From: Candidatus Omnitrophota bacterium | Lineage (GTDB): Bacteria; Omnitrophota; Gorgyraeia; M55B152 | Reading direction: 5' to 3' | NCBI GenBank assembly: GCA_018399975.1 | Contig: JAGYNU010000002.1 | Coordinates: forward strand, 1 to 52,505 | DNA length: 52,505 nucleotides | Shown here: in pieces, positions 3,763 through 51,590 of the stretch | How the letters are laid out: the number at the start of each line of letters is the position of its first letter | Numbering within the stretch: the stretch's first letter is position 1 | Position numbers and translations under genes: made by a program | The notes under the pieces: model-generated | The model's input: the letters and a program-made list of their open reading frames with translations, nothing else | What the model was told of the DNA's origin: nothing | The model's database searches: none

Positions 3763-3866
3763 TTTTAAAAATAGATTTTCTTTAGGATAAGTAGATAAAT
3801 ACACCCAAGAAATTATATCTCAGCCTACTCGAATTGAAATCCATTATATCATTTAACTTAAAATGG

Positions 3867-4089
3867 AACCCCACGGGGCAAGCCCTGTGAAATATACTTT
3901 TGTATTTCACGGGGCAAGCCCGTGGTACCTTTATGTACCCGTCTTCGCCAAACACTTATTGTGTTTGGCTTCGCCGAGGTTATCCGCCAACACATTTAGG
4001 TGGCTCCTTCATTTGGTGACATCTCGCCGAAGCATAACTTTCGCATTCATCCACGGGGAAACCCGTGGTTTTCTGCGAAGGCGGATAAA
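3867..4089. repeat. 223-bp multi-hairpin interspersed element, copy A
   Basis: Near-identical to 16247-16469. Shorter derivatives lie at 45643-45830 and 46160-46202. It is GC-rich relative to its surroundings and ends 5 nt from the stop codon at 4095. Confidence 0.9.
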
Positions 4090-7800: not shown

Positions 7801-7922
7801 CGCAGATTGGCACAGATTTTTAAAACACCACACAAGATTAGCACAGATAAATGATCAAGATACAATTATTTAATATTCAAACTAATACTTTTATTTGGTC
7901 ATTGTAATTTGGTTATTCTCAT
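7801..7922. repeat. ~125-bp conserved repeat core, copy I (CACAGAT words ... ATTCTCATG)
   Basis: Aligns with 17089-17229 and 27921-28050 with only a few substitutions or small indels. A partial copy lies at 41840-41890. Confidence 0.9.
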
Positions 7923-8185
7923 GTCCTATGTCCTAGGTCCTATGTCCTAGGTCCTATGTCTTGCTACTTGCTACTTGCTACTTGTTACTTGTTACTTGCT
8001 ACTTGTTACTTGCTACTTGTTACTTGTTACCTGTTACCTGTTACCTGTAACCTGTAGCTTGTAGCTTGTTTTTCGTCATTCGTCATTCGCCTGCCTGCCG
8101 GCAGGCAGGGATTTCGTCATTTGTTTGTTACTTGTTACTTGTTACCTGTTACCTGTAACCTGTAGCTTGCAGCTTGTAGCTTGTA
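7922..8185. repeat. Phase-locked tandem heptamer arrays (TGTCCTA > CTACTTG > TTACCTG > TAGCTTG), split by TCGTCAT words and a palindrome
   Basis: 21 consecutive in-phase 7-mers at 7922-8068. A second array lies at 8123-8185. The region ends 10 nt before the stop codon at 8196. Confidence 0.9.
8090..8109. repeat. 20-bp perfect palindrome CCTGCCTGCCGGCAGGCAGG
   Basis: A second full copy lies at 17124-17143. Left-half copies lie at 17075-17088 and 27907-27920. It is absent from otherwise identical flanks at 28190-28200 and 41955-41965. Confidence 0.9.
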
Positions 8186-16208: not shown

Positions 16209-16246
16209 ACGAATTTCCTCCCAATAAAAATTCTAAAAAATAATGA

Positions 16247-16469
16247 AACCCCACGGAGCAAACCCTGTGAAATATACTTTTGTATTTCACGGGGCAAGCC
16301 CGTGATACCTTTATGTACCCGTCTTCGCCAAACACTTATTGCGTTTGGCTTCGCCGAGGTTATCCGCCAACATATTCAGGTGGCTCCTTCATTTGGTGAT
16401 ATCTCGCCGAAGCATAACTTTCGCATTCATCCATGGGTAAACCCGTGGTTTTCTGCGAAGGCGGATAAA
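16247..16469. repeat. 223-bp multi-hairpin interspersed element, copy B (between rpsM and rpsK)
   Basis: Same length and orientation as copy A with scattered substitutions. It ends 6 nt from the rpsM stop at 16476. Confidence 0.9.
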
Positions 16470-16868: not shown

Positions 16869-16945
16869 TAATGAGAACATAACTTAGCGAACAAAGTGAA
16901 GCTAAGTTATTTGTTCGAATTAAATCCGCCATTTTTTGTGGCGGA
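16869..16945. repeat. Leader hairpin module (TAATGAG - bulged 12-14-bp hairpin - GAATTAAATCCGCC-loop-GGCGGA), copy at the rpsM 5' region
   Basis: Stem GAACATAACTTAGC / GCTAAGTTAT(TT)GTTC. The same architecture with different stems is found at 22645-22716, 41211-41288, 41299-41381 and 45544-45597. Confidence 0.8.
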
Positions 16946-17088
16946 GGCTATCTACTTCGTTTGTTTTTTAGATCAATTAGGTCAATCAGACTTCAGACAA
17001 CAGAGAACAGACAACAGATATCAAACTTCGTATCACAGAATTATGCATTTGCTTGTTTCGTCATCCATCATTCGCCTGCCTGCCGGCA

Positions 17089-17229
17089 AACACAGATTAT
17101 CACAGATTTTTAAAAGCTACACACCTGCCTGCCGGCAGGCAGGGATTATCACAGATTAATGATCAAGATACAATTATTTAATATTCAAACTAATACTTTT
17201 ATTTGGTTATTGTAATTTGTCATTCTCAT
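17089..17229. repeat. ~125-bp conserved repeat core, copy II (carries the 20-bp palindrome at 17124-17143)
   Basis: Aligns to copies I and III, except that an internal segment is replaced by GCTACACA plus the palindrome. Confidence 0.85.
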
Positions 17230-17420
17230 GTCCTATGTCCTATGTCCTATGTCCTAGGTCCTATGTCCTATGTCCTACTATGTCCTAGGTCCTATGTCTT
17301 GTTACTTGTTACTTGTTACTTGTTACCTGCTACCTGTTACCTGCGACTTGTAGCTTGTAGCCTGTAGCCTGTAGCCTGTAACTTGTAGCCTGCAACTTGC
17401 AGCCTGTAGCTTGTAGCTTG
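17229..17420. repeat. Tandem heptamer array, 27 units with one 3-nt slip
   Basis: Direct reading. It has the same order of word families as 7922-8068 and 28050-28178. It ends 2 nt from the rpmJ stop codon. Confidence 0.9.
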
Positions 17421-17422
17421 TT

Positions 17423-22644: not shown

Positions 22645-22716
22645 AATGAGGTCATAATTTACGGAATTTTGTCGTAAATTATATGACCAAATTAATCCGC
22701 CAATTTTTATGGCGGA
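22645..22716. repeat. Leader hairpin module, copy at the rplF 5' region
   Basis: AATGAG, then stem GGTCATAATTTACG / CGTAAATTAT(AT)GACC, then AAATTAATCCGCC-loop-GGCGGA. Confidence 0.8.
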
Positions 22717-22881
22717 TGCTATCTACTTCGTTTGTTTTTTAGGTCAATTAGAGCAATTAGAAATTTTTCCCTTTCTATTTTTCCCTTTCGGCTTTCAGCT
22801 ATGAGCTTTTAACTATGAACTAAGAGCTCATTTATTTTTGTGGCGGAAGCTAAAAACCCATTTATCCTTATAACGAATAAT

Positions 22882-27828: not shown

Positions 27829-27920
27829 TTTATCTCACTTTGTTTGATAGAACACAGATTAAAGTTTACAGATTACAATAAAAGACTTTCTAATATCTGT
27901 CTTCCGCCTGCCTGCCGGCA

Positions 27921-28050
27921 AACACAGATTATCACAGATTTTTAAAACACCACACAAGACTAGCACAGATTAATGATCAAGATACAATTATTTAATATTC
28001 AAACTAATACTTTTGTTTGGTTATTGTAATTTGTTATTTGTCATTCTCAT
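27921..28050. repeat. ~125-bp conserved repeat core, copy III
   Basis: Aligns to copies I and II. It is preceded by the half-palindrome at 27907-27920. Confidence 0.9.
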
Positions 28051-28384
28051 GTTCTAGGTCCTATGTCCTAGGTCCTAGGTCCTATGTCCTATGTCTTGCT
28101 ACTTGTTACTTGTTACCTGTTACCTGCTACTTGCAGCCTGCAGTTTGTAGCTTGCAGCCTGCAGCTTGTAGCTTGCAATTCGTCATTCGTCATTCTGATT
28201 TCGTCATTTGTTTGTAACTTGCAATTTGCAATTTGTTTGTAATTTGTTATTTGTCATTTGTAATTTACTTGTATCTTGTATCTTGTATCTTGTTACTTGT
28301 ATCTTGCCTGCCCCGTAGCACCCGCAGGGTTGGTACGGAGTTTTCTGTTTTCTGTTTTCTGTCTTCTGTTTTCTGTTTTCTGTC
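28050..28384. repeat. Heptamer arrays (TGTCCTA > CTACTTG > TTACCTG > CAGCCTG > TCGTCAT words > TGCAATT/TGTAATT/TGTATCT), one GC hairpin (28311-28340), then a TTCTGTT array abutting the rplW stop
   Basis: The 7-nt period is readable over more than 250 nt. This is the spacer between rplW and rplB. Confidence 0.9.
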
Positions 28385-28669
28385 TTATGTTACATCTATA
28401 GTATGTCCTTTTTCTAAAGTTACTATTGCCTTTTTCCAATCTCGTCTTTTTCCTTCTTTAAAACGCACTCTTCTCTTTTTGCCATACATATTTATAGTAT
28501 TAACATTTTTCACTTTAACAGAATATATTTTTTCGACAGCTTCCTTTACCTGTATTTTATTAGCAAATTTCTGGATAACAAAAAGGTATTGATTGTCCTG
28601 TAGCATTCGAGTCCCCTTCTCAGTTCTCATCATGCTAAATAAAATATCATAACAATCTTCTTTCTTCAT
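28385..28669 (-). CDS. rplW: 50S ribosomal protein L23
   Basis: Motifs TEKGTRMLQDNQYLFVIQKFANK and WKKAIVTL. Confidence 0.95.
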   Translation of the reverse strand: MKKEDCYDILFSMMRTEKGTRMLQDNQYLFVIQKFANKIQVKEAVEKIYSVKVKNVNTINMYGKKRRVRFKEGKRRDWKKAIVTLEKGHTIDVT

Positions 28670-33436: not shown

Positions 33437-36400
33437 TTATTTATCATTTACTGTTTCTTTTTCTTGCTCATTATTAGAATCTTTCTGTTTTTCAATTTCT
33501 CCTATTAACGAAGAAACATCTTTCTTTACCTTAATTTCACGATTTTGCCTAAATCCTGTCCCTGCAGGAATTAAATGTCCCATTATAACATTTTCTTTAA
33601 GTCCATACAAGTTATCAGTTTTACCACTTGCAGCTGCATCCGTTAAAACTCTTGTTGTTTCCTGAAAACTAGCTGCAGATATAAAACTTTCTGTAGTCAA
33701 AGACGCTTTGGTAATTCCTAATAATAAAGGAGACGCGCTAGCCGGTTTCCCCTTATTTTCTCTAACTTTTTGATTTTCTTCTTTAAAACAAAATTTATCG
33801 ATATGTTGTCCAGGTAAAAAATCAGTATCTCCAGGGTCTTCTATCTTAACCTTTCTAAGCATTTGTTTTATAATTAACTCAATATGTTTATCATTTATTT
33901 TAACACCTTGTAATCTATAAACTTCTTGAACTTGATCTAATAAATATTTCTGCAATTCTTTTTCACCGCGTATGTTAAGGATATCATCAGGAACTATTGG
34001 ACCATCGGTTAAACGGTCCCCACTTGAAACCTTATCGCCTTTATATACATTTAAATGTTTTCCATGTGGAACCAAATACTCCTTTTTCATTCCAGAAGGC
34101 GATTGAATTATAACCCTTCTTTGCCCACGTTTAGCACTACCAAATTCCACTACACCATCGATTTCACTAATTACTGCGGGGTTTTTTGGCTTTCGGGCTT
34201 CAAACAGTTCTGCAACCCTTGGTAATCCTCCTGTAATATCTCTAGTTTTGGTAACTTTTCTAGGAGTTTTTGCCAAGATAGTCCCAGCTTTAACTTTTTG
34301 ATTTTCCTTTACTGCGATATGAGCTCCAGCTGGTAATGGATAAATAGCCACAACATTATTCTTTTTATCCAAAATTAATATCTGCGGATGGAAATCCACA
34401 GAATGTTCTATAATAACTTGTCCAGTTATACCTGTAGCCTCATCAATTTCTCTATGAGAGGTCTTACCATCAACAATATCCTCAAATTCTATCTTACCTT
34501 CTACTTCTGTTAGTATAGGAGACGAATAAGGATCCCATTCTACAAACTTATCACCTTTTTGAACTTTATCTGACTCTTTTACATTTAAAAATGCACCTTG
34601 TGGAATAACATGTCGTTCTAATTCAATGCCTTCTTCATCATTTATACTAATTTGAGAATTTCGATTAAGAACTATAAACTTTTTCTTTGAAACAGAAACT
34701 ATTCTTAATCCATGAAATACTATTTTCCCATCATGCTTAGATTCTATAAAAGATTGCTCCACAATTCTACTAGCAGTTCCTCCAATATGAAAAGTTCTCA
34801 TAGTTAACTGAGTACCAGGCTCTCCAATTGACTGAGCAGCAATTACACCTACAGCCTCTCCTGCTTCTACAAGACGACCATTTGATAAACTAGTACCATA
34901 ACATTTCGAACAAACGCCCCTTGAAGCTTCACAGGTTAGAACACTTCTAATTTTTATTTTTTCGATACCTAATTCCTGAATCCTATTTGCTTTCTTCTCT
35001 GTTATAACTTCACCCGATTTTACTATTACTTCATCTGAAACAACATCAACTATGTTATCAGCAGCAACTCTACCTACAATTCTTTCCTTTAAACTTACTA
35101 CTATTTCATCACCTTCCACGATGGCTTCTACATAAATGCCATTTAAAGTGCCGCAATCTTCCTCAGTAACAATAACATCTTGTGCAACATCGACTAAACG
35201 TCTTGTTAAATAACCTGAGTCAGCTGTTTTTAAAGCCGTATCAGCTAATCCTTTTCTACCCCCATGAGATGAAATAAAATATTCTAATGAAGTTAATCCC
35301 TCTCTAAAACTCGAAATAACAGGACTTTCTATAATTTCTCCTGAAGGTTTAGCCATTAAACCTCTCATACCTACTAATTGTCGAATTTGTTGTTTAGAAC
35401 CCCTTGCTCCTGAATCAGCCATCATAAATAAAGGATTAAATTTATCTAAATGTTTAAAAACTGAATCGGAAACCTGTTCTGTAACATGAGTCCATATATC
35501 TACTATTTTATTATAACGCTCCCCTGCCGTTATTATCCCTTGCTCGTAAGATTTCTCAACTTCGCCAACTTTTTTATAAGCTTCCGTTACAAGTTCTTCT
35601 TTATCTTCTGGAATAACTAAATCACTAATAGACAAAGAAGCTCCTGAATAAGTAGCTTCTTTAAAACCTTTTTCTTTAACTTTATCCAATAATTTAACAA
35701 CCGCATCATATCCAAATTCTTCATAACAGTTTTTTATTACATCAGATAAAGCTGATTTATTTAACAATTTGTTAACAAAATTCATTTCTTTAGGCAAAAT
35801 ATCATTAAAAAGTACTTTACCAACAGTTGTTTCAATTAATTCAGAATTTATTCTTACTTTTATACTTGCATGCATATGTACTGCTCCATCTTCATATGCA
35901 GAAATGACTTCAGCAGTGTTAGAAAACATTTTACCTTCGCCTTTAACACCTTTTCTCATCTTCGTAAGATAATACAAACCAAGCACTATATCCTGCGTTG
36001 GAGAAACAATCGGACCTCCATGAGCAGGAGAAAATATGTTGTTACTGGATAACATCATTAATCTGGCTTCCATTTTAGCTTCAGCAGATAAAGGAACATG
36101 TACAGCCATTTGGTCACCATCAAAATCTGCATTAAAAGGCGTGCAAACCAATGGATGCACTTTTATAGCTTTACCTTCTACTAAAATAGGCTGAAATGCT
36201 TGTATTCCTAATCTATGTAAAGTAGGTGCACGATTCAATAATACTGGATGCCCCTTAATAACCTCATCTAATATATCCCATACTTCTACTTCTGTACGTT
36301 CTACCATTTTCCGAGCGCTTTTAATAGTATGGACATGCCCTCTCTTCTTTAATTCCTTTATAATAAAAGGCTCAAATAATTCTAAAGCAATTCTTTTTGG

Positions 36401-39400
36401 CAAACCACATTGATGCAATTGCAATTCCGGCCCAATGACTATAACGCTCCTACCAGAATAATCTACTCTTTTACCTAATAGATTTTGTCTAAATCTACCT
36501 TGTTTACCTTTAAGCATTTCACTTAAAGATTTTAGAGGCCTATTACCTGCCCCCATAACGGGACGGCCATGTCTTCCATTATCAAACAAAGCATCAACAG
36601 CTTCCTGTAACATCCTTTTTTCATTTCTAATTATTATCTCAGGAGCATTAAGTTCCATTAATTTCTTTAGGCGGTTATTTCTATTAATCACTCTTCTATA
36701 CAAATCATTTAAATCACTAGTAGCAAATCTCCCTCCATCTAAAGGAACTAAAGGCCTTAAATCCGGAGGGATAACAGGAATAACGTCCATAACCATCCAA
36801 GATGGTTCATTCCCTGACTTTTTAAAAGATTCTACAATTCTTAATCTTTTCAATACTTTTTTTCTAACTTGTTTACCACGTTTTCTCTTAGCTTTACTAT
36901 GCAAATCAGTTGCTAATTCATTTAAATCTAAATTCCCCAACAATTCTCTTATAGCTTCTGCTCCCATTTTAGCAGTAAAGCTTTTACTATATTTAGCCTT
37001 TGCCTCTCTATATTTGTTTTCTGATAATAAATCTCCTGTTTTAAAAGGACTATCTCCCGGGTCTATTACACAATACTCCTCGTAATAAATAACCCGTTCT
37101 AATTGTCTCATACTCATGCCTAATAAAGCTCCCATTCTAGAAGGCATAGTCTTAAAAAACCATATATGAGAAACAGGAGAAGCAAGTTCTATATGCCCCA
37201 TCCTTTTCCTTCTGACATCAGATGTGGTAACTTCAACCCCGCATCTGTCGCATATTATCCCTTTATTTTTTATTCTCTTATATTTTCCACAATAACATTC
37301 CCAGTCTTTGGTAGGACCAAAAATCCTTTCGCAAAATAAGCCTCCTTTTTCTGTTTTTAATGTTCTATAATTAATAGTTTCTGGTTTTGTTACTTCACCA
37401 TGAGACCAAGATCGAATCACATCAGAAGAAGCTATATTTATACGTATAGAATTAAAATCACCATCTTTTGATATAGAATCTTTGTCAAAATCTTGCTCTG
37501 TACGAATATCTAAAGCCAAACCCATAAGTTCTTTAATCAATACATTAAAAGATTCAGGTGTCCCTGTTTGCAAAGAACAATCGCCTTTTACAATATTCTC
37601 GTATATACGAGTGCGTCCTTTAACATCATCACTCTTAACTGTCAATAACTCCTGTAACATATAAGCAGCACCATAAGCTTCAAGTGCCCATACCTCCATT
37701 TCCCCGAATCTCTGCCCTCCGTATTGAGCTCTACCTCCTAAAGGCTGCTGTGTAACCAAAGAATAAGGGCCAATAGAACGAGCATGAATCTTTTCATCAG
37801 CTAAATGTATTAACTTCAATACATACATATAACCAACGGTTATTTTCTGGTCAAAAGGCTGTCCTGTTAAACCATCATAAAGTATAATTCTTCCATCTTC
37901 TGGCAACCCAGCCTTTCTTAACAATTCTTTTATTTCTTCTTCATTAATACCTCCAAAAACAGGCGTAGCTACATATTTATTTAATATCTCAGCTGCCCAT
38001 CCTAAATGAGTTTCTAAAACCTGTCCTATATTCATACGCGAAGGAACCCCTAACGGATTTAAAACCATATCAACTGGAGTTCCATCTGGTAAAAATGGCA
38101 TATCTTCTTCAGGCAATATTCTGGCAACAACCCCCTTATTGCCATGTCTACCAGCCATTTTATCTCCCACAGACAGCTTTCGTTTACTTGCTATATAAAC
38201 AACCACCCGTTTTATAACCCCTGGTGGTAATTCATCTGCTTTTTTCACCTTATCTATTTGTCTTTCTTGTTCATAAGTCAAATCATCTATTTGATCATTA
38301 AATAATCTTAAAACTTTCTCGATTTCTTCATTTATATCATCATTTTTTAATTCAATTTCATCTACATCACAATTGACTAATTTTTTAATATCAGTTTTAG
38401 TTATTTTCTTTCCCTTTTCAATAATAGGCTTACCTGTATTAATATCAAGTAAATCAGCAGCTAATGTATGGCCTTCTATTATTTCCCCTACTCTACTAAT
38501 TTTCCCCTTTAAAATATCATCAATTTTACCTTGATATTCTTCTTCAATTTCTTTTATACGAGCTCTTTCTTTAGACCTTTGAGATTTAGTGCGAGCAGGC
38601 TCCTTTCTGGAAAAAACTTTTGTATCTATAACGATACCTTCTACACCAGAAGGAACTTTTAAAGAAGCATCGCGTATATCTCCAGCTTTTTCGCCAAAAA
38701 TAGCTCTTAACAATTTTTCTTCTGGAGTAAGTTCTGTCTCCACCTTAGGAGTAATTTTCCCTACCAAAACATCTCCTGACTCTACTTTAGCTCCTACCCT
38801 AATAATCCCATCTTCATGTAAATCTTTTAAAGCTTCTTCTCCTACATTAGGAATATCTCTAGTAATCTCCTCTGCCCCTAATCTAGTATCTCTAGCTTCA
38901 ATCTCAAATTCTTCAATATGAACAGAAGTATAAACATCATCTTTAACTAACCGTGAACTAACTAAAATAGCATCTTCAAAATTATGTCCATGCCAAGACA
39001 TAAAAGCTACTAAAACATTTTTACCTAAAGCAATTTCTCCTTCTTTTGTAGCAGGTCCATCTGCTAATATATCTCCTTTTTTTACCTTAGCCCCAATAGA
39101 TGTCACTGACCTTTGATTAATACAAGTATTGGCATTAGAACGTTTAAATTTTTTTAGTTTATAATCTGTAGAACCAACTGTTATAGTACTACCATCTATA
39201 TAATTTACATTACCAGAATTTTTAGCTATAATTAAAGCTCCTGAATCTCTTCCAACTTTTTCCTCCATGCCGGTTCCAACCAATGGTGGTTCAGGAAATA
39301 ATAACGGAACAGCTTGACGTTGCATATTAGCTCCCATAAGAGCACGGTTTGTATCATCATGTTCTAAAAAAGGAATCAAACTGGCATCAACGCTAACAAT

Positions 39401-41194
39401 CTGTCTGGGAGAAACATCTATATAATCTATTTCTTTAGGAGATACACTAATAACATCCTGTTTATACCTACATTTTACTTGTTTATCCAAAAATTTTCCC
39501 TTATTATCTAACCTTGCATTGGCTTGAGCTATAATTTTGTTATCTTCTATATCAGCAGTTAAATACTCAACCTTTTTTGTAACTATACCTTTTTCAACCT
39601 TTCTATAAGGAGATTCCAAAAAACCCAATCTGTTAACTTTAGAAAATGTAGTTAAAGTTGTAATTAAACCAATATTAGGGCCTTCTGGAGTTTCAATAGG
39701 ACAAATCCTTCCATAATGCGAATGGTGAACATCACGGACTTCAAAACCAGCTCTTTCTCGGCTTAACCCCCCTGGGCCTAATGCACTAAGTCTACGTTTA
39801 TGTGTAGTCTCAGCTAAAGGATTAGTCTGATCCATAAATTGTGACAATCTACCTCTACCAAAAAAATCTCTAATTACCGATGATACTAACTTTGTATTAA
39901 CCAAGTTTTGAGGCATCATAGTCTCAGTATCATATATATTCATTCTCTCCCTAGCAGAACGAGCTACTCTCGCTAAACCTACCTGTATTTGATTAGCTAA
40001 AAGTTCGCCAACTGTCCTTATTCTCCTATTACCTAAATGGTCAATATCATCTACTTCTCCCTCTCCTCTTCTTAAATTCAAAAGATATTTTACAGCTTCA
40101 ATTATTACTTTTTTATCTAATTCTCTTTTATCATCAGAAAAATTTGTATTAAATTTTCGATTAATAATAAACCATCCAACTTTGCTCATATCATACCTTT
40201 TGGAGTCAAAAAACATTCTATTTAACAAAGATTTGGCATTTTCTTCAGTAGGAGGGTCTCCTGGGCGAAGCTTTCTATACAATGCCAACAAGGCTTCTGT
40301 TTGATTTTTGGTATTATCTTTCTCAAAGGAATTTCTAATTTCAACAAAATCATTACTAACTAATTTTATTTGCTTAACTTTTACATTTTTTAACTTGTTT
40401 CTAATCAACTTATTGGTAATTTTAGTTAATGCCGGAACAACTATCTTCTCCTTCTTTTCACCATTTTTATCCTCTAATATTGTTTCTTTAATAGGTTCTG
40501 CAAGCACTTTATCTAAATATTTTTTCCATTGTGAACTCCTCTTTATACTTACATTTTCTATTCCGCATATCTCTTTTAAAATATCTTGATCAGTCGAATA
40601 CCCAAGAGCACGCAAAAATGTAGTAAAAACAAATTTACGCCTTCTATCAATATAAACATTTAATCTATTTGATTTATCAAATTCAAATTCTATCCATCCG
40701 CCTCTATAAGGTATAATACGAGCAGAAAATATACTTTTCCCTCTAATTCTAGTTGTTTCACCAAATGACACTCCAGGAGATCTATGTAATTGATTAACAA
40801 CGACTCTATCATCGCCATTTATAATAAAATTACCTTCTTCGGTCATTAATGGCAAATCTCCAAAATAAACTTCTTGTTCTTTAATTTCTTTATCAGAACG
40901 TAATCTTATTTTTGCTTTTAAAGCACCTGCATAAGAAAAACTTCTTTCCCTAGCTTCTTCTTCACTATATTTAGACCTATCTATAGTGTAACTAATAAAT
41001 TCTAAAATATATTTACCATCAAAACTCTCTATGGGAAAAATATATTCAAAAATAGCCTGTAAACTTTTATTTTCCCTTTTCGTTTTAGGAACATCAAACT
41101 GTAAAAAATCCTCATATGACTCCACCTGAGTTGCAACTAAATTTGGCAAGCTAAAAACTTCTTTTGTTTTACCAAAATTTAGTCTTGTAATCAT
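33437..41194 (-). CDS. rpoBC: Fused DNA-directed RNA polymerase beta-beta' subunit (2585 aa)
   Basis: One uninterrupted 7758-nt ORF. Residues 1 to ~1234 carry beta motifs ([27 protein letters not shown]). Residues from ~1247 carry beta' motifs (zinc [14 protein letters not shown], catalytic [12 protein letters not shown]). The linker [12 protein letters not shown] is encoded at ~37455-37495. AAGGAGAGG SD precedes ATG 41194. Confidence 0.9.
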
Positions 41195-41210: not shown

Positions 41211-41511
41211 TAATGAGACCATGATTTACACGACTATAAGGAGTGTAAATCATATGGTCGAATTAAATCCGCCAATGTTTGTGGCGGATATAGCCCACTA
41301 ATGAACACATGATTTAGAGAGTTCAAGCGAATCTAAATCATATGTGTGAATTGAATCCGCCGTAGCTTTAGCGTAGGCGGAAGTTCATAATTTACGGAAA
41401 TCCTGTCCGCCAATGTTTGTGACGAAAGCATATAACTTAGCGAATCCTTCGATTTTACTCAGGATAAACAAAGTGAAGCTAAGTTATATGACCGAATTTT
41501 ACCCGCCAAAG
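41211..41511. repeat. Four tandem leader hairpin modules (two full, one truncated, one long-loop) in the rplL-rpoBC spacer
   Basis: Module positions are 41211-41288, 41299-41381, 41385-41428 and 41429-41511. Each has a bulged hairpin with its own stem sequence plus a CCGCC-loop-GGCGG hairpin. Confidence 0.8.
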
Positions 41512-41839: not shown

Positions 41840-42056
41840 AAACCACAGATTATCACAGATTTCTAAAACCACACAAGATTAGCACAGAAATTGAAACCTG
41901 CAGCCTGAAGTTTGCAGCATGTAGCTTGAAGCTTGCAGCTTGTTTCTTTTCGTCATTCGGATTTCGTCATTTGTCATTTGTTTTCTTTCTGTTTTCTGCC
42001 TGCCCCGTGAAATCTTATTTCTACGGGGTTATCTGTCTTCTGTCTTCTGAATAAAC
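41840..42056. repeat. Partial core, TGCAGC-type heptamers, TCGTCAT words, hairpin CCCCGT-N14-ACGGGG (42003-42028) and TCTGTCT units abutting the rplL stop
   Basis: Direct reading. The hairpin recurs as its exact reverse complement at 49998-50023. Confidence 0.85.
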
Positions 42057-43990: not shown

Positions 43991-44153
43991 ACTGGTTTCT
44001 GGTTACTGGTTTCTGGTTTCTGGTTACTGGTTTCTGGTTACTGGTTACTGGTTTCTGGTTACTGGTTACTGGTTACTGGTTTCTGATTTCTGGTTTCTGG
44101 TTACTGGTTACTGGTTTCTGGTTTCTGGTTTCTGATTTCTGGTTTCTGGTTTC
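43991..44153. repeat. Tandem heptamer array ACTGGTT/TCTGGTT/TCTGATT (~23 units)
   Basis: Direct reading. It fills the whole rplK-rplA spacer and encodes the last 26 codons and the stop codon of the rplK ORF. Confidence 0.95.
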
Positions 44154-44585
44154 TATTATTTCTACCCCCATACTTCTAGCAGTTCCTTTAACTGTTTTAA
44201 TAGCAGATTCTAAATCTACCGCGTTTAAATCTTCCATTTTTTCCTTTGCTATCTTTTCTACCTGATTTTTAGTTAAACTGGCAACTTTTTCTTTATTAGG
44301 AACTCCAGAAGCTTTTGCTATACCACATTCTTTTTTTATCAAAACAGGGGTAGGAGGATTCTTAACTACAAAAGAAAAACTCCTATCTGCATAAATTTCT
44401 AATACAACAGGTAAAGTTAAACCCGGCCTATCTTTAGTTTGTTCATTGAATTGTTTGCAAAAATCCATTATTTTTACACCATATTGGCCTAAAGCAGGAC
44501 CAACAGGCGGCGCAGGATTCGCTTGCCCCCCTGGACAATAGAGCTTAAGTTTAGCCATTATTTTCTTTTTTTTCTTTTTAGCCAT
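44073..44585 (-). CDS. rplK: 50S ribosomal protein L11 with 26-aa repeat-encoded C-terminal tail
   Basis: Motifs [14 protein letters not shown] and [12 protein letters not shown], then [25 protein letters not shown] read from the heptamer array. Confidence 0.93.
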
Positions 44586-45597: not shown

Positions 45598-45642
45598 TTA
45601 CTCACTACCTAATTTTCTTGATTTTTAGACAATTAAAAATAA

Positions 45643-45830
45643 AACCCCACGGGGCAAGCCCTGTGGTACCTTTATGTACCCGTCTTCGCCAAACACTTAT
45701 TGTGTTTGGCTTCGCCGAGGTTATCCGCCAACACATTTAGGTAGCTCTTTCATTTGGTAACATCTCGCCGAAGCATAACTTTCGCATTCATCCATGGGTA
45801 AACCCGTGGTTTTCTGCGAAGGCAGATAAA
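45643..45830. repeat. Multi-hairpin interspersed element, copy C (188 bp, internal 35-bp deletion)
   Basis: Collinear with copies A and B, but lacks the segment between the two CACGGGGCAAGCCC direct repeats. Confidence 0.9.
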
Positions 45831-46105: not shown

Positions 46106-46159
46106 CTTAATCTACTATTACTAAATTAAAATTAAATTTTTTTAAATTATGTGGAATAG

Positions 46160-46202
46160 AACCCCACGGGTAAACCCGTGGTTTTCTGCGAAGGCGGATA
46201 AA
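46160..46202. repeat. Multi-hairpin interspersed element, mini copy D (43 bp)
   Basis: The left end AACCCCACGGG is joined directly to the right end TAAACCCGTGGTTTTCTGCGAAGGCGGATAAA. It abuts the tuf stop codon (46203) with zero spacing. Confidence 0.85.
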
Positions 46203-49719: not shown

Positions 49720-49860
49720 TTCAGTATAACCTCCTTCTTTAGCGTAAAGTATCTAATTAACTTTTTTTTACAATAGATATACATAACTTTAACTCCAATA
49801 AAATAACATAAATTAATACCAAAATCAAATATAATGTATTGTATATTAATTTCTAATTAC

Positions 49861-50300
49861 TAATTGACCTAATTGACCTAAATTAGCTCATAGCTCTTAG
49901 CTCATAGTAAAGAAAGAAACAAGAAAGATACAAGATACAAGAAAGATACAAGTAACAAGTCGCAGGTAACAGGTAGCAGGTAACAAGTAATAAGTTACCC
50001 CGTAGAAATAAGATTTCACGGGGCAAGCAAGATACAAGATGCAAGATACAAGAAAGATACAATAACCAAGATACAAGATACAAACAAATTACAATATACA
50101 ATAAACAAATTACAAATGACAAATTGACCTAATTACTTTAAAACAAGTAGAGAGTAGAAAGTAGGAAGTAGAGAGACAAGGACATAGCCCGTGAACCAGA
50201 GATTTATTTTATAAATCACGGTTCAGGGCTAGGGTGAACCGTACTTCGTTCTGGTTCCCCCTAGGACATAGGACATGAGAATTACAAATGACAAATCAAG
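49861..50300. repeat. Repeat island in the divergent spacer
   Basis: Contains AATTGACC words and AGCTCAT heptamers. The CTTGTTA/CCTGTTA families and TGTCCTA-ATTCTCATG appear here as reverse complements. Also contains hairpin 49998-50023, AGTAGAG heptamers (50146-50187) and two GC hairpins (50192-50264). Confidence 0.85.
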
Positions 50301-50399
50301 TTGCAAATTTTAAACTGGAATACGAAATTTAGAACTTGTAGCGTTAAGTAAATTTGTGTCAATTAGTTGTAATTAGTGTTAATTAGTGTGTTATGAATT

Positions 50400-51590
50400 A
50401 TGAATGATATGATATGTATTTTAGATATTGGGAGTTGGAACATAAAAGCAGTAGTGGTTCGATTATTTAATGGAGTCCAAGTACAGAAAGTGTATTTTAG
50501 CACTGCTAAGTCTATGGGTTTAGATCGTGGTAAAGTTACAAATTTGGATTATCTTTCTGATTCTGTAGAACAAGTTGTTTCAAATATTGAGATGCAGATG
50601 AAAATACGCATTTCAAAAGTTAATGTGTGTATAAGCGGAGATCACATAAAGGGTTATGATTCAAAAGGTATAATTACTATTTCTGAATTTGGTTCTGAGA
50701 TTAAACAAGTAGATGTAAAGAAAGCCATGGATTCGGCTAAATTACTTTCAGTTCCTATGGATAGAAGGATTTTGCATATTTATGAACAGGGTTTTGTAGT
50801 TGACGGGCAAACAGATGTTACTATGCCTGTAGGTATGTTTGGTAAAAAGTTGGAAGCTAATTTACATATAATTACTGCTTTGGAAAATAAAGTGCAGAGT
50901 ATTATTAAAGCTGTTAATAATGTTGGAATTCAAGTTGACAAAGTTTTATTTTCAGGATTTATGAATGTCTATGGGGTTTTATCAGAAAAGCAAAGGATAG
51001 AAGGTGCGGTTATTTTAGATATAGGAGCAGGGTCCAGTAGTATTACAGGGATTAAAGAAAATAATTTTTTTAAAACAAAAATTTTTGATTTTAGTAGCAT
51101 AAAATTAACAGAAAAAATAAAACAGGAGTTAAAAATTCCTTTTAAAGAAGCTGAATTAAAGAAAAAAGAACTTGTATCCTTTTATCCTAAGTCTAAGTTG
51201 GAAAAATCTATTTCTTTAAATAGAAATGACAGAGACATGATAGAAATTGTTTATAATTTTTTAAGCAAAGAGTTAAAACAGTTAAAAAATGAATTAGATA
51301 ACAAACTTTTGAATTTAGCCTCAGAAAATTTCATAGTTACTGGAGAAACAGCTTTGATGGGAGGCTTAATAGAGTTAATAGAAGATATTTTTAAAGTTAA
51401 AGCGAAAACAGCTAACCCTAAAATTGTGGATTTTGATAAGGATTTATTTTTAAATTTATGCCAATATTCAGCATGTGTGGGAGGAATAAATTTATCGCTT
51501 AAGCAAAGAAACATTAAGTATAATAAATCGTTTAGTAAAATTCACTTAACTTTTAATAAGATAAAAAATTTTTTAACAGAATATTTTTGA
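50400..51590 (+). CDS. ftsA: Cell division protein FtsA (actin-like ATPase)
   Basis: Motifs ILDIGSWNIKAVVV, RILHIYEQGFVVDGQ and VILDIGAGSSSITG. Short amphipathic C-terminus. Confidence 0.8.
   Translation: MNDMICILDIGSWNIKAVVVRLFNGVQVQKVYFSTAKSMGLDRGKVTNLDYLSDSVEQVVSNIEMQMKIRISKVNVCISGDHIKGYDSKGIITISEFGSEIKQVDVKKAMDSAKLLSVPMDRRILHIYEQGFVVDGQTDVTMPVGMFGKKLEANLHIITALENKVQSIIKAVNNVGIQVDKVLFSGFMNVYGVLSEKQRIEGAVILDIGAGSSSITGIKENNFFKTKIFDFSSIKLTEKIKQELKIPFKEAELKKKELVSFYPKSKLEKSISLNRNDRDMIEIVYNFLSKELKQLKNELDNKLLNLASENFIVTGETALMGGLIELIEDIFKVKAKTANPKIVDFDKDLFLNLCQYSACVGGINLSLKQRNIKYNKSFSKIHLTFNKIKNFLTEYF

Follow-up and report, generated by a model that had tools for sequence, protein, structure and literature searches.

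IS608 and ISDra2, the models for "peel and paste" transposition, carry subterminal hairpins on one strand, lack inverted repeats, and generate no target duplication. IS200/IS605 elements are excised from, and inserted into, the lagging-strand template (PMC5027513), and in IS608 the cleavage sites are recognized by pairing with 4-nt guides located 5′ of the hairpin feet (PMC3201880). The target of these models, a tetra- or pentanucleotide (TTAC or TTGAT), lies 5′ of the left end, and their end distances measure 19 nt on the left and 10 nt on the right. Transposase-less IS200/IS605 derivatives, known as PATEs, are found in haloarchaea and Geobacillus and often encode omega RNAs (Meers et al.); they are short, contain no protein gene, have ends resembling those of resident insertion sequences, and are presumed to be mobilized in trans. 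REP and REPIN sequences are a further case of hairpin DNA mobilized by Y1 HUH enzymes, the RAYTs. They are intergenic, lie near gene ends, measure 20–40 nt, form inverted pairs with a GTAG-type motif, and depend on a single-copy domesticated gene.

We analyzed a 52,505-nt stretch of a Candidatus Omnitrophota genome (hereafter, the window), which holds four copies of a GC-rich repeat. These repeats are very probably non-autonomous IS200/IS605 elements (PATEs or MITEs) whose movement would depend on a Y1 HUH transposase (TnpA) acting in trans, from the 142-aa "ISSod23 family" clade. The IS200-group insertion sequences that encode this enzyme, found on Vibrio pVA1-type plasmids, in Geovibrio, and in metagenomes, share with the window element the left core CAGAAnA-CCACGGGTTTACCCGTGG-ATGAATG, the (T)TTAT at the left end, a right end made of a guide, a hairpin, and an 8-nt tail, the rule that pairs guides with cleavage sites, and a preference for terminator T-runs. 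Unlike them, the window element has no tnpA, an unrelated interior, a different 16-nt left tip (CCGCCTTCGCAG...), and a right end in CCAT or TCAT in place of CTAT or CTAC.

The resemblance to IS608 and ISDra2 extends to the hairpins on one strand, the lack of inverted repeats and target duplication, a pentanucleotide 5′ of the left end, the 4-nt guides 5′ of the hairpin feet, and a lagging-strand template bias, here deduced from GC skew and gene orientation. In contrast to those models, the putative target is TTTAT, left and right distances measure 16 and 8 nt, neither tnpA nor tnpB is present, and the element is known from sequence alone. Like the PATEs, the element is short, lacks a protein gene, has ends similar to those of insertion sequences, and is presumed to be mobilized in trans, but this lineage occurs in bins of at least four phyla (Nitrospirota, Deltaproteobacteria, two candidate-phyla-radiation groups, and an Actinomycetota-labelled bin), has a 45-nt end that is almost invariant across phyla, combines a modular interior with other small palindromes nested in hairpin loops, and contains an internal complement of its own target and left tip. 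With REPs and REPINs, it has in common the proposed mobilization of hairpin DNA by a Y1 HUH enzyme, an intergenic position near gene ends, and single-hairpin derivatives, whereas the short length, inverted pairing, and GTAG-type motif are not seen in the window element, whose relatives are multi-copy insertion sequences.

A literature search on this transposase-less lineage returned nothing specific. The analysis documents a widespread, apparently uncatalogued group of IS200-type elements with its putative target TTTAT, guide rule, and ends. This should be useful for annotating metagenome-assembled genomes, where these repeats break assemblies, and provides natural guide and cleavage-site variants for studying target choice by single-strand transposases. 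On this reading, the odd-looking 220-nt GC-rich structures found within essential ribosomal operons, in a genome that is otherwise AT-rich, would be ordinary selfish DNA, and such regions need no annotation as RNA genes or regulators.

Four copies of a GC-rich hairpin element

Direct reading of three regions of the window placed all four copies (A–D) on the plus strand, in the single orientation claimed by an earlier note on this DNA, and the 23-mer of the 3′ core occurs four times in the window versus zero expected in shuffles. The copies have a GC content of 47–51%, compared with 32% for the whole window, in line with the first description of a GC-rich element in AT-rich surroundings. Over 227 nt, copies A and B share 96% identity, and their flanks are unrelated. 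The conserved unit originally delimited holds, but its start lies 4 nt further to the left, at the ATGG of positions 3863, 16243, 45639, and 46156. Conservation ends at GGATAAA; by analogy with known elements, its final five nucleotides (ATAAA, or TTTAT in the minus-strand reading) most likely form the insertion target and do not belong to the element.

Copy A (3863–4084, minus strand) is 222 nt long, has its top strand on the window minus strand, and looks the most intact of the four by its sequence. Its right-end tail (3863–3870, minus strand) contains the putative cleavage site CCAT, which reads ATGG on the plus strand at 3863–3866. The right hairpin foot (3871–3877 paired with 3919–3925, minus strand) encloses a 41-nt loop, ~35 nt longer than that of copy C, and has next to it the right guide GGTA (3926–3929, minus strand; TACC on the plus strand). 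An internal GGCGGATAA (3980–3988, minus strand) is complementary to the putative target TTAT together with the five nucleotides that open the left end. The left-end hairpin CCACGGGTTTCCCCGTGG (4051–4068, minus strand), a core common to tnpA-bearing IS200-type elements, is flanked by ATGAATG (4044–4050, minus strand) and by the left guide AAAA (4069–4072, minus strand). The putative insertion target TTTAT (4085–4089, minus strand) adjoins the left cleavage site, 5 nt past the acyltransferase stop codon.

The other three copies are also described on the minus strand. Copy B (16243–16464, 222 nt), located between rpsM (S13) and rpsK (S11), has its left hairpin at 16431–16448 and a putative target TTTAT at 16465–16469. 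Copy C (45639–45825, 187 nt), between rpmG and tRNA-Trp, consists of a right hairpin (45647–45666), a guide (45667–45670), and a left hairpin (45792–45809) next to a putative target TTTAT (45826–45830), and is missing a 35-nt insertion that the 5′ hairpin of copies A and B carries in its loop. The right cleavage sites of copies B (TCAT) and C (TTAT) mismatch their own GGTA guide, and in copy B pairing is achieved only via a T-G wobble. Since its right end finishes in TTAT and its left tip is mutated (CTGCC), copy C has probably decayed. Copy D (46156–46197) is reduced to 42 nt with one hairpin only (46164–46181), set between the left tip and the right tail, and its putative target TTTAT (46198–46202) lies immediately after the tuf stop codon.

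Pfam searches confirmed the neighboring genes named in the earlier note (the acyltransferase, rpsM, and tuf), with a heptosyltransferase and a lipid A acyltransferase around copy A, S13 and S11 around copy B, and EF-Tu beside copy D. Every gene between 1 and 49.7 kb is on the minus strand. The gaps between stop codon and repeat are 5 nt for the acyltransferase (ORF end 4095), 6 nt for S13 (16476), and 0 nt for EF-Tu (46203), so that three copies do end 0–6 nt from minus-strand stop codons, as had been stated. On the minus strand, the TAA of tuf is directly followed by TTTAT and then by the element. These short distances would arise because TTTAT is common right after stop codons in AT-rich spacers.

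Ends shared with Y1 transposase insertion sequences

A blastn search of plasmids with copy A matched 18 Vibrio plasmids at 94–97% identity over 33–36 nt, with the core GCATTCATCCACGGGtAAACCCGTGGTTTTCTG. The matching core at the plus-strand 3′ end, CATTCAT-CCACGGGtAAACCCGTGG-TTTTCTG, shows 94–97% identity with the left ends of IS200-type insertion sequences that encode a 142-aa Y1 (HUH) transposase, among them the Vibrio plasmid, metagenomic, and Geovibrio copies. In V. owensii pVOWZ4, 25 nt separate the core match from an annotated IS200/IS605 tnpA that lies downstream of it on the opposite strand, and the encoded TnpA matches Pfam Y1_Tnp (1.5e-31). A V. campbellii plasmid carries a ~150-nt derivative with the same ends and no tnpA. 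More than 1,700 TnpA homologues were found; among the 120 matches listed, most are ~70–75% identical to the query, and they include proteins of Pirellulales, Thiotrichales, and Geovibrio, some labelled "ISSod23 family". Judged by these matches, the Vibrio TnpA is in a very conserved 142-aa IS200-group clade that bears the NCBI label "ISSod23 family".

We retrieved the insertion sequences of five TnpA homologues from multiple genomic contexts. Their left ends consist of the flank with (T)TTAT, a 16–26-nt spacer, CCACGGGTTTACCCGTGG (CCACGCTTTTAAGCGTGG in Geovibrio), and ATGAATGAGCC (ATGAATG...), followed by tnpA; their right ends consist of a 4-nt guide, a hairpin, and an 8-nt tail ending in CTAT or CTAC at the flank. 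The window element read on the minus strand presents TTTAT, CCGCCTTCGCAGAAAA (the 16-nt spacer), CCACGGGTTTCCCCGTGG, ATGAATGCGAA ... GGTA, a hairpin, and GGTTCCAT (the 8-nt tail with its CCAT end). Aligned left ends of the window copies and the tnpA-bearing elements have 30 invariant columns, and the right ends are alike in architecture. Similarity to the autonomous elements is limited to this left-end core and to the architecture of the right hairpin; the 16-nt left tip and the interior differ. Because the core adjoins tnpA in the relatives, the plus-strand 3′ end of the window element corresponds to an IS200-type left end read backwards, and its top strand is therefore the window minus strand.

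The related insertion sequences are tnpA-only, ~0.6 kb long, and devoid of tnpB, and one Geovibrio genome carries at least five identical copies of the autonomous element. A tblastn search with TnpA detected no tnpA in the 52-kb window, and none of the ~110 related loci contains a tnpA with matching ends, the only one found there (in L027) having different ends. With no tnpA in the window, the element would be mobilized in trans by a TnpA whose gene is located in another part of the genome, and it may still be active. The L027 gene (624–1046) is an unrelated IS200-type tnpA with different end hairpins and 29% identity to its Vibrio counterpart; ~600 nt separate it from the left end of a contig-edge family member.

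Dispersal and modular structure of the family

Six metagenome-assembled genomes contain an exact match to the 23-mer among species-representative genomes; they are binned as Nitrospirota bacterium, Nitrospirales, Deltaproteobacteria, Levyibacteriota, Parcubacteria, and one labelled Actinomycetota. A 20-mer search of metagenomes yielded 110 stretches, and searches of viral contigs, phages, and E. coli genomes gave no match. An exact-protein look-up of the window S13 and EF-Tu, aimed at sister genomes with empty sites, found neither protein on record.

Including the flanking ATAAA, the elements measure 47–303 nt (128–303 nt for full units), with conserved ends and variable, modular interiors. 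Copies that are 93–98% identical occur in unrelated flanks, and such near-identical copies, in hosts with a GC content of 32–62% (45–63% for the element), point to past mobility. For about 23 matches, a contig end is no more than 150 nt away, and the family includes several truncated copies. Blocks of the interior recur across hosts of very different GC (GCTTCGGCG in 38/56, GATGTC in 33/56, and GCGGA in 46/56), and interior blocks are absent from 20–40% of members. All-against-all clustering of 707 neighboring ORFs revealed no recurrent neighbor protein.

Single-hairpin forms of 42–49 nt, made of the left tip, one hairpin, and the right tail, recur in several subfamilies (L030 929–975, L047 on the minus strand, L045, L061, L069, L001 5270–5312, and window 46156–46197). 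L030 and L047 have private variants in common (GCAYCACGG) in unrelated flanks, in hosts of 54% and 37% GC, and for this reason the short form may itself have moved. One possibility is that mobile forms of this kind represent a step from insertion-sequence ends towards REP-like repeats. In a separate pair of loci, L055 and L114, the left flank is the same and the element is 99% identical, whereas the right flanks differ, owing either to rearrangement at the element itself or to a chimeric assembly across the repeat.

Putative target, guides, and cleavage sites

Of 59 unique loci, 51 have TTTAT next to the left end, T is enriched at positions −1 to −3, and (T)TTAT is found at the left end of every tnpA-bearing relative fetched. 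By analogy, and with this conservation taken into account, TTTAT is the putative insertion target rather than an element end. Target duplication is absent in 58 of the 59 unique loci, where the junctions show no direct repeat of 4 nt or more. The CCACGG...CCGTGG hairpins at the two ends are directly oriented; the termini show no complementarity to each other, and there are no terminal inverted repeats.

At the left end, TTAT pairs with an AAAA, AATA, or AACA guide. At the right end, 32 of 38 elements combine CCAT with a GGNA guide and nine of nine combine TCAT with GATA, while the autonomous relatives pair CTAT or CTAC with AGNA. In a 30-sequence alignment of hairpin and guide pairs, 95% of cells can pair, versus 27–52% with the partners slid, and both guide pairs change on both sides (GC 23, AU 5 each). 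Because the TCAT/GATA cases form one subfamily, these changes represent few independent covariation events, not many. The rule linking guides to cleavage sites matches the IS608 recognition scheme, and the exact cleavage positions given here are predictions from that pairing.

Flanks folding at −10 kcal/mol or better were more frequent on the right (11/57) than on the left (4/59), and consist mostly of terminator-like hairpins abutting the TTTAT end. In Geovibrio (BAAFZG010000002.1; L130–L135), five of six autonomous copies lie directly in the T-run of a terminator hairpin, e.g., ...GCCGCCCTTTTTTAT, so that TTTAT targeting amounts to terminator targeting.

Secondary structure and the acting strand

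Folded as RNA, copy A reaches −102.3 kcal/mol on the plus strand (z −9.0 against shuffles) and −96.6 kcal/mol on the minus strand (z −6.7); as top-strand (minus) DNA, it reaches −53.5 kcal/mol (z −6.6). The minimum-energy fold contains the hairpins predicted in the earlier note together with its 9-bp long-range closure, TTATCCGCC/GGCGGATAA. This closure consists of the target TTAT and the left tip paired with the internal GGCGGATAA, is specific to the transposase-less lineage, and is absent from the autonomous relatives. The block complementary to the left end is present in its full 9 nt in 28 of 56 elements, and at least as GCGGA in 46 of 56. Its pairing could compete with guide recognition.

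The terminal hairpins are retained through pair changes on both sides (e.g., L050, L058, and L082). In ~60 family members, the non-Watson-Crick pairs of these hairpins divide into 17 of the G-T type and 19 of the A-C type, and the G-U ambiguity between strands first seen in the window copies is thus real, with no strand bias. The acting strand had been considered undecidable by eye; it is indeed not readable from G-U pairs, but the location of tnpA in related elements identifies the window minus strand as the acting one. Whole-element folds are weakly better on the minus strand (37 members versus 25, mean difference 2 kcal/mol).

Read on the plus strand, the left-end hairpin followed by TTTTCTG resembles an intrinsic terminator. 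We found no promoter-like site for a plus-strand RNA near copy A, and the similarity between copies stops exactly at the ATG; an element with its own promoter was rejected on both counts. A small ORF was also discarded: the ATG and TAA are out of frame (length minus 1 not a multiple of 3), and in many members the TAA falls in the first hairpin loop. An Rfam search, which the earlier note had suggested, matched no described RNA family: at gathering thresholds only two tRNAs in the whole window reach score, and at permissive E-values copy A, L016, and L085 all stay well short of threshold.

Replication strand and gene orientation

Between 1 and 49.7 kb, the window minus strand is G-rich and gene-rich (skew of −0.1 to −0.4 on the plus strand) and carries the ribosomal-protein, rpoBC, and tuf operons, and is therefore the expected lagging-strand template. 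The top strands of all four copies lie on this strand, the replication direction being deduced from skew and gene orientation. In the related loci, the top strand is co-directional with tandem neighbor genes in 21 cases versus 6 after duplicates were removed by hand (23 versus 11 in the raw listing). Both lagging-strand insertion combined with gene-strand bias and selection against the opposite, terminator-like orientation fit this bias.

Gene orientation and GC skew both switch at 49720–50400, where minus-strand genes extend to fusA and plus-strand genes start with ftsA from 50400. This 680-nt gap is full of repeats and could be a replication origin or merely a divergent promoter region.

Proposed mechanism and alternative explanations

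Of the explanations considered in the earlier note (an IS200/IS605-type non-autonomous element, a REP/BIME-like repeat, or a structured 3′-UTR RNA), the first is favored by the ends shared with Y1-bearing elements, the adjoining TTTAT, the absence of target duplication, the guide covariation, and the dispersal of the family. In the mechanism that we propose, a single strand, the window minus strand, would be active. TnpA would bind both subterminal hairpins of the form CCACGG...CCGTGG and would cleave after the flanking TTTAT on the left and after ...CCAT on the right, with both sites located by the 4-nt guides just 5′ of each hairpin foot (AAAA on the left, GGNA on the right). The strand would then be excised as a circle and joined to the 3′ side of a new TTTAT in DNA that is single-stranded, as the lagging-strand template typically is. 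Such a single-strand mechanism would produce the common orientation of the four copies and their co-orientation with the leading-strand ribosomal and rpoBC operons. The copies would be located after stop codons or in terminator T-runs because TTTAT is common and insertions are tolerated there.

The transposon could in addition carry a functional RNA, a reading that adds to IS200-type mobility rather than replacing it and that we regard as improbable. A conserved interior transcribed from the top strand would then serve in trans as a guide-RNA scaffold for TnpB or IscB, or would form an mRNA-stabilizing or insulating structure. PATEs often encode omega RNAs (Meers et al.), the top strand is the transcribed strand of the flanking operons in the window, one subfamily has GUAA loops on the top strand, and interior blocks recur across hosts of very different GC. 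Yet these blocks are missing in 20–40% of members and many copies are truncated, three divergent members have no match in Rfam, omega-RNA families included, and the wobble pairs carry no strand bias; no neighbor protein recurs, and the related insertion sequences of ~0.6 kb have tnpA and no tnpB. That the lineage-specific interior, including the block that pairs with the target TTAT and the left tip, is more than filler is unlikely; in that case it might be a selected structure that hides the left cleavage site to control excision, or an RNA cargo, such as a trans guide scaffold or an mRNA insulator. If true, this might explain the near-invariant 45-nt end and the recurrence of blocks across phyla and across 32–62% GC.

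Explanations that dispense with an insertion-sequence transposase fare less well. A REP/BIME-like repeat kept by a domesticated single-copy RAYT (TnpA-REP), itself a Y1 enzyme, is very improbable: the end hairpins are direct and differ in their flanks instead of forming inverted REP pairs, full units of 128–303 nt have two different ends, there is no GTAG-type 5′ tetranucleotide, and the insertion sequences that share the left hairpin are multi-copy, a single Geovibrio genome carrying five or more identical copies and metagenomes supplying many further contexts. What recalls REPs is that the repeat is hairpin-based, intergenic, and multi-copy, and that the 42–49-nt single-hairpin forms (copy D, L001, L030, L045, L047, L061, and L069) resemble solitary REPs. 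Hardly any weight attaches, either, to an immobile cis-acting RNA (a 3′-UTR, intercistronic, or terminator structure) selected for the expression of flanking genes. The strong fold on both strands, the terminator-like plus-strand hairpin with its TTTTCTG, and the biased orientation relative to tandem neighbors (21 versus 6, or 23 versus 11 before de-duplication) would suit such an RNA, but lagging-strand insertion or selection against the terminator-like orientation in operons explains the bias equally well. The flanking genes have no common function and no particular gene is associated with the element, identical copies stand at unrelated loci, truncated copies exist, Rfam is blank, and the wobble pairs show no strand bias. 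A riboswitch or leader of a particular gene was likewise rejected, as no family recurs among the 707 clustered ORFs. A group II intron remnant, an integron attC site, a Helitron or IS91-like element, and a retron were dismissed by eye because the ends of the repeat fit none of them.

Additional repeats and genes

Long 7-nt tandem-repeat arrays occur in or beside at least six intergenic regions of the window (7921–8070, 17228–17421, 28049–28391, 41902–41943, 43992–44154, and 49914–50123), with units (ATGTCCT, CTTGTTA, CTTGTAG, GTTTTCT, CTGGTTT, and CAAGATA) that are similar at distant sites. A further intergenic repeat family of ~70–130 nt contains AAGCTAAGTTAT.TG..CGAATT.AATCCGCCA-TTTTTGTGGCGGA, which forms a hairpin; its members lie at 16890–16990, 22674–22761, 41233–41288, 41321–41380, and 41467–41508, with three in a row after rpoBC. 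The hairpin CCCCGTGAAATCTTATTTCTACGGGG is found twice, in opposite orientations, at 42002–42027 and 49998–50023. A hairpin similar to CCCCGTGAAATCTTATTTCTACGGGG, namely GTGAAATA...TATTTCAC, makes up the 35 nt that copies A and B carry inserted in the loop of the right hairpin.

The GC-rich palindrome CCTGCCTGCCGGCAGGCAGG stands alone in the window at 17124–17143 and also near 8090–8110, 17073–17088, and 27907–27922, and the same module is nested in hairpin loops of related metagenome elements (L001 4135–4160, L049, L105, L065, L067, and L025). Its presence both alone and in the loops of relatives suggests that hairpin loops are landing sites for a second small palindromic repeat. Among the genes of the window, rpoB and rpoC form a single ORF of 2585 aa (33437–41194) with all beta and beta-prime Pfam domains. 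The window also encodes a lipid A acyltransferase and a heptosyltransferase, and its host therefore has an outer membrane.
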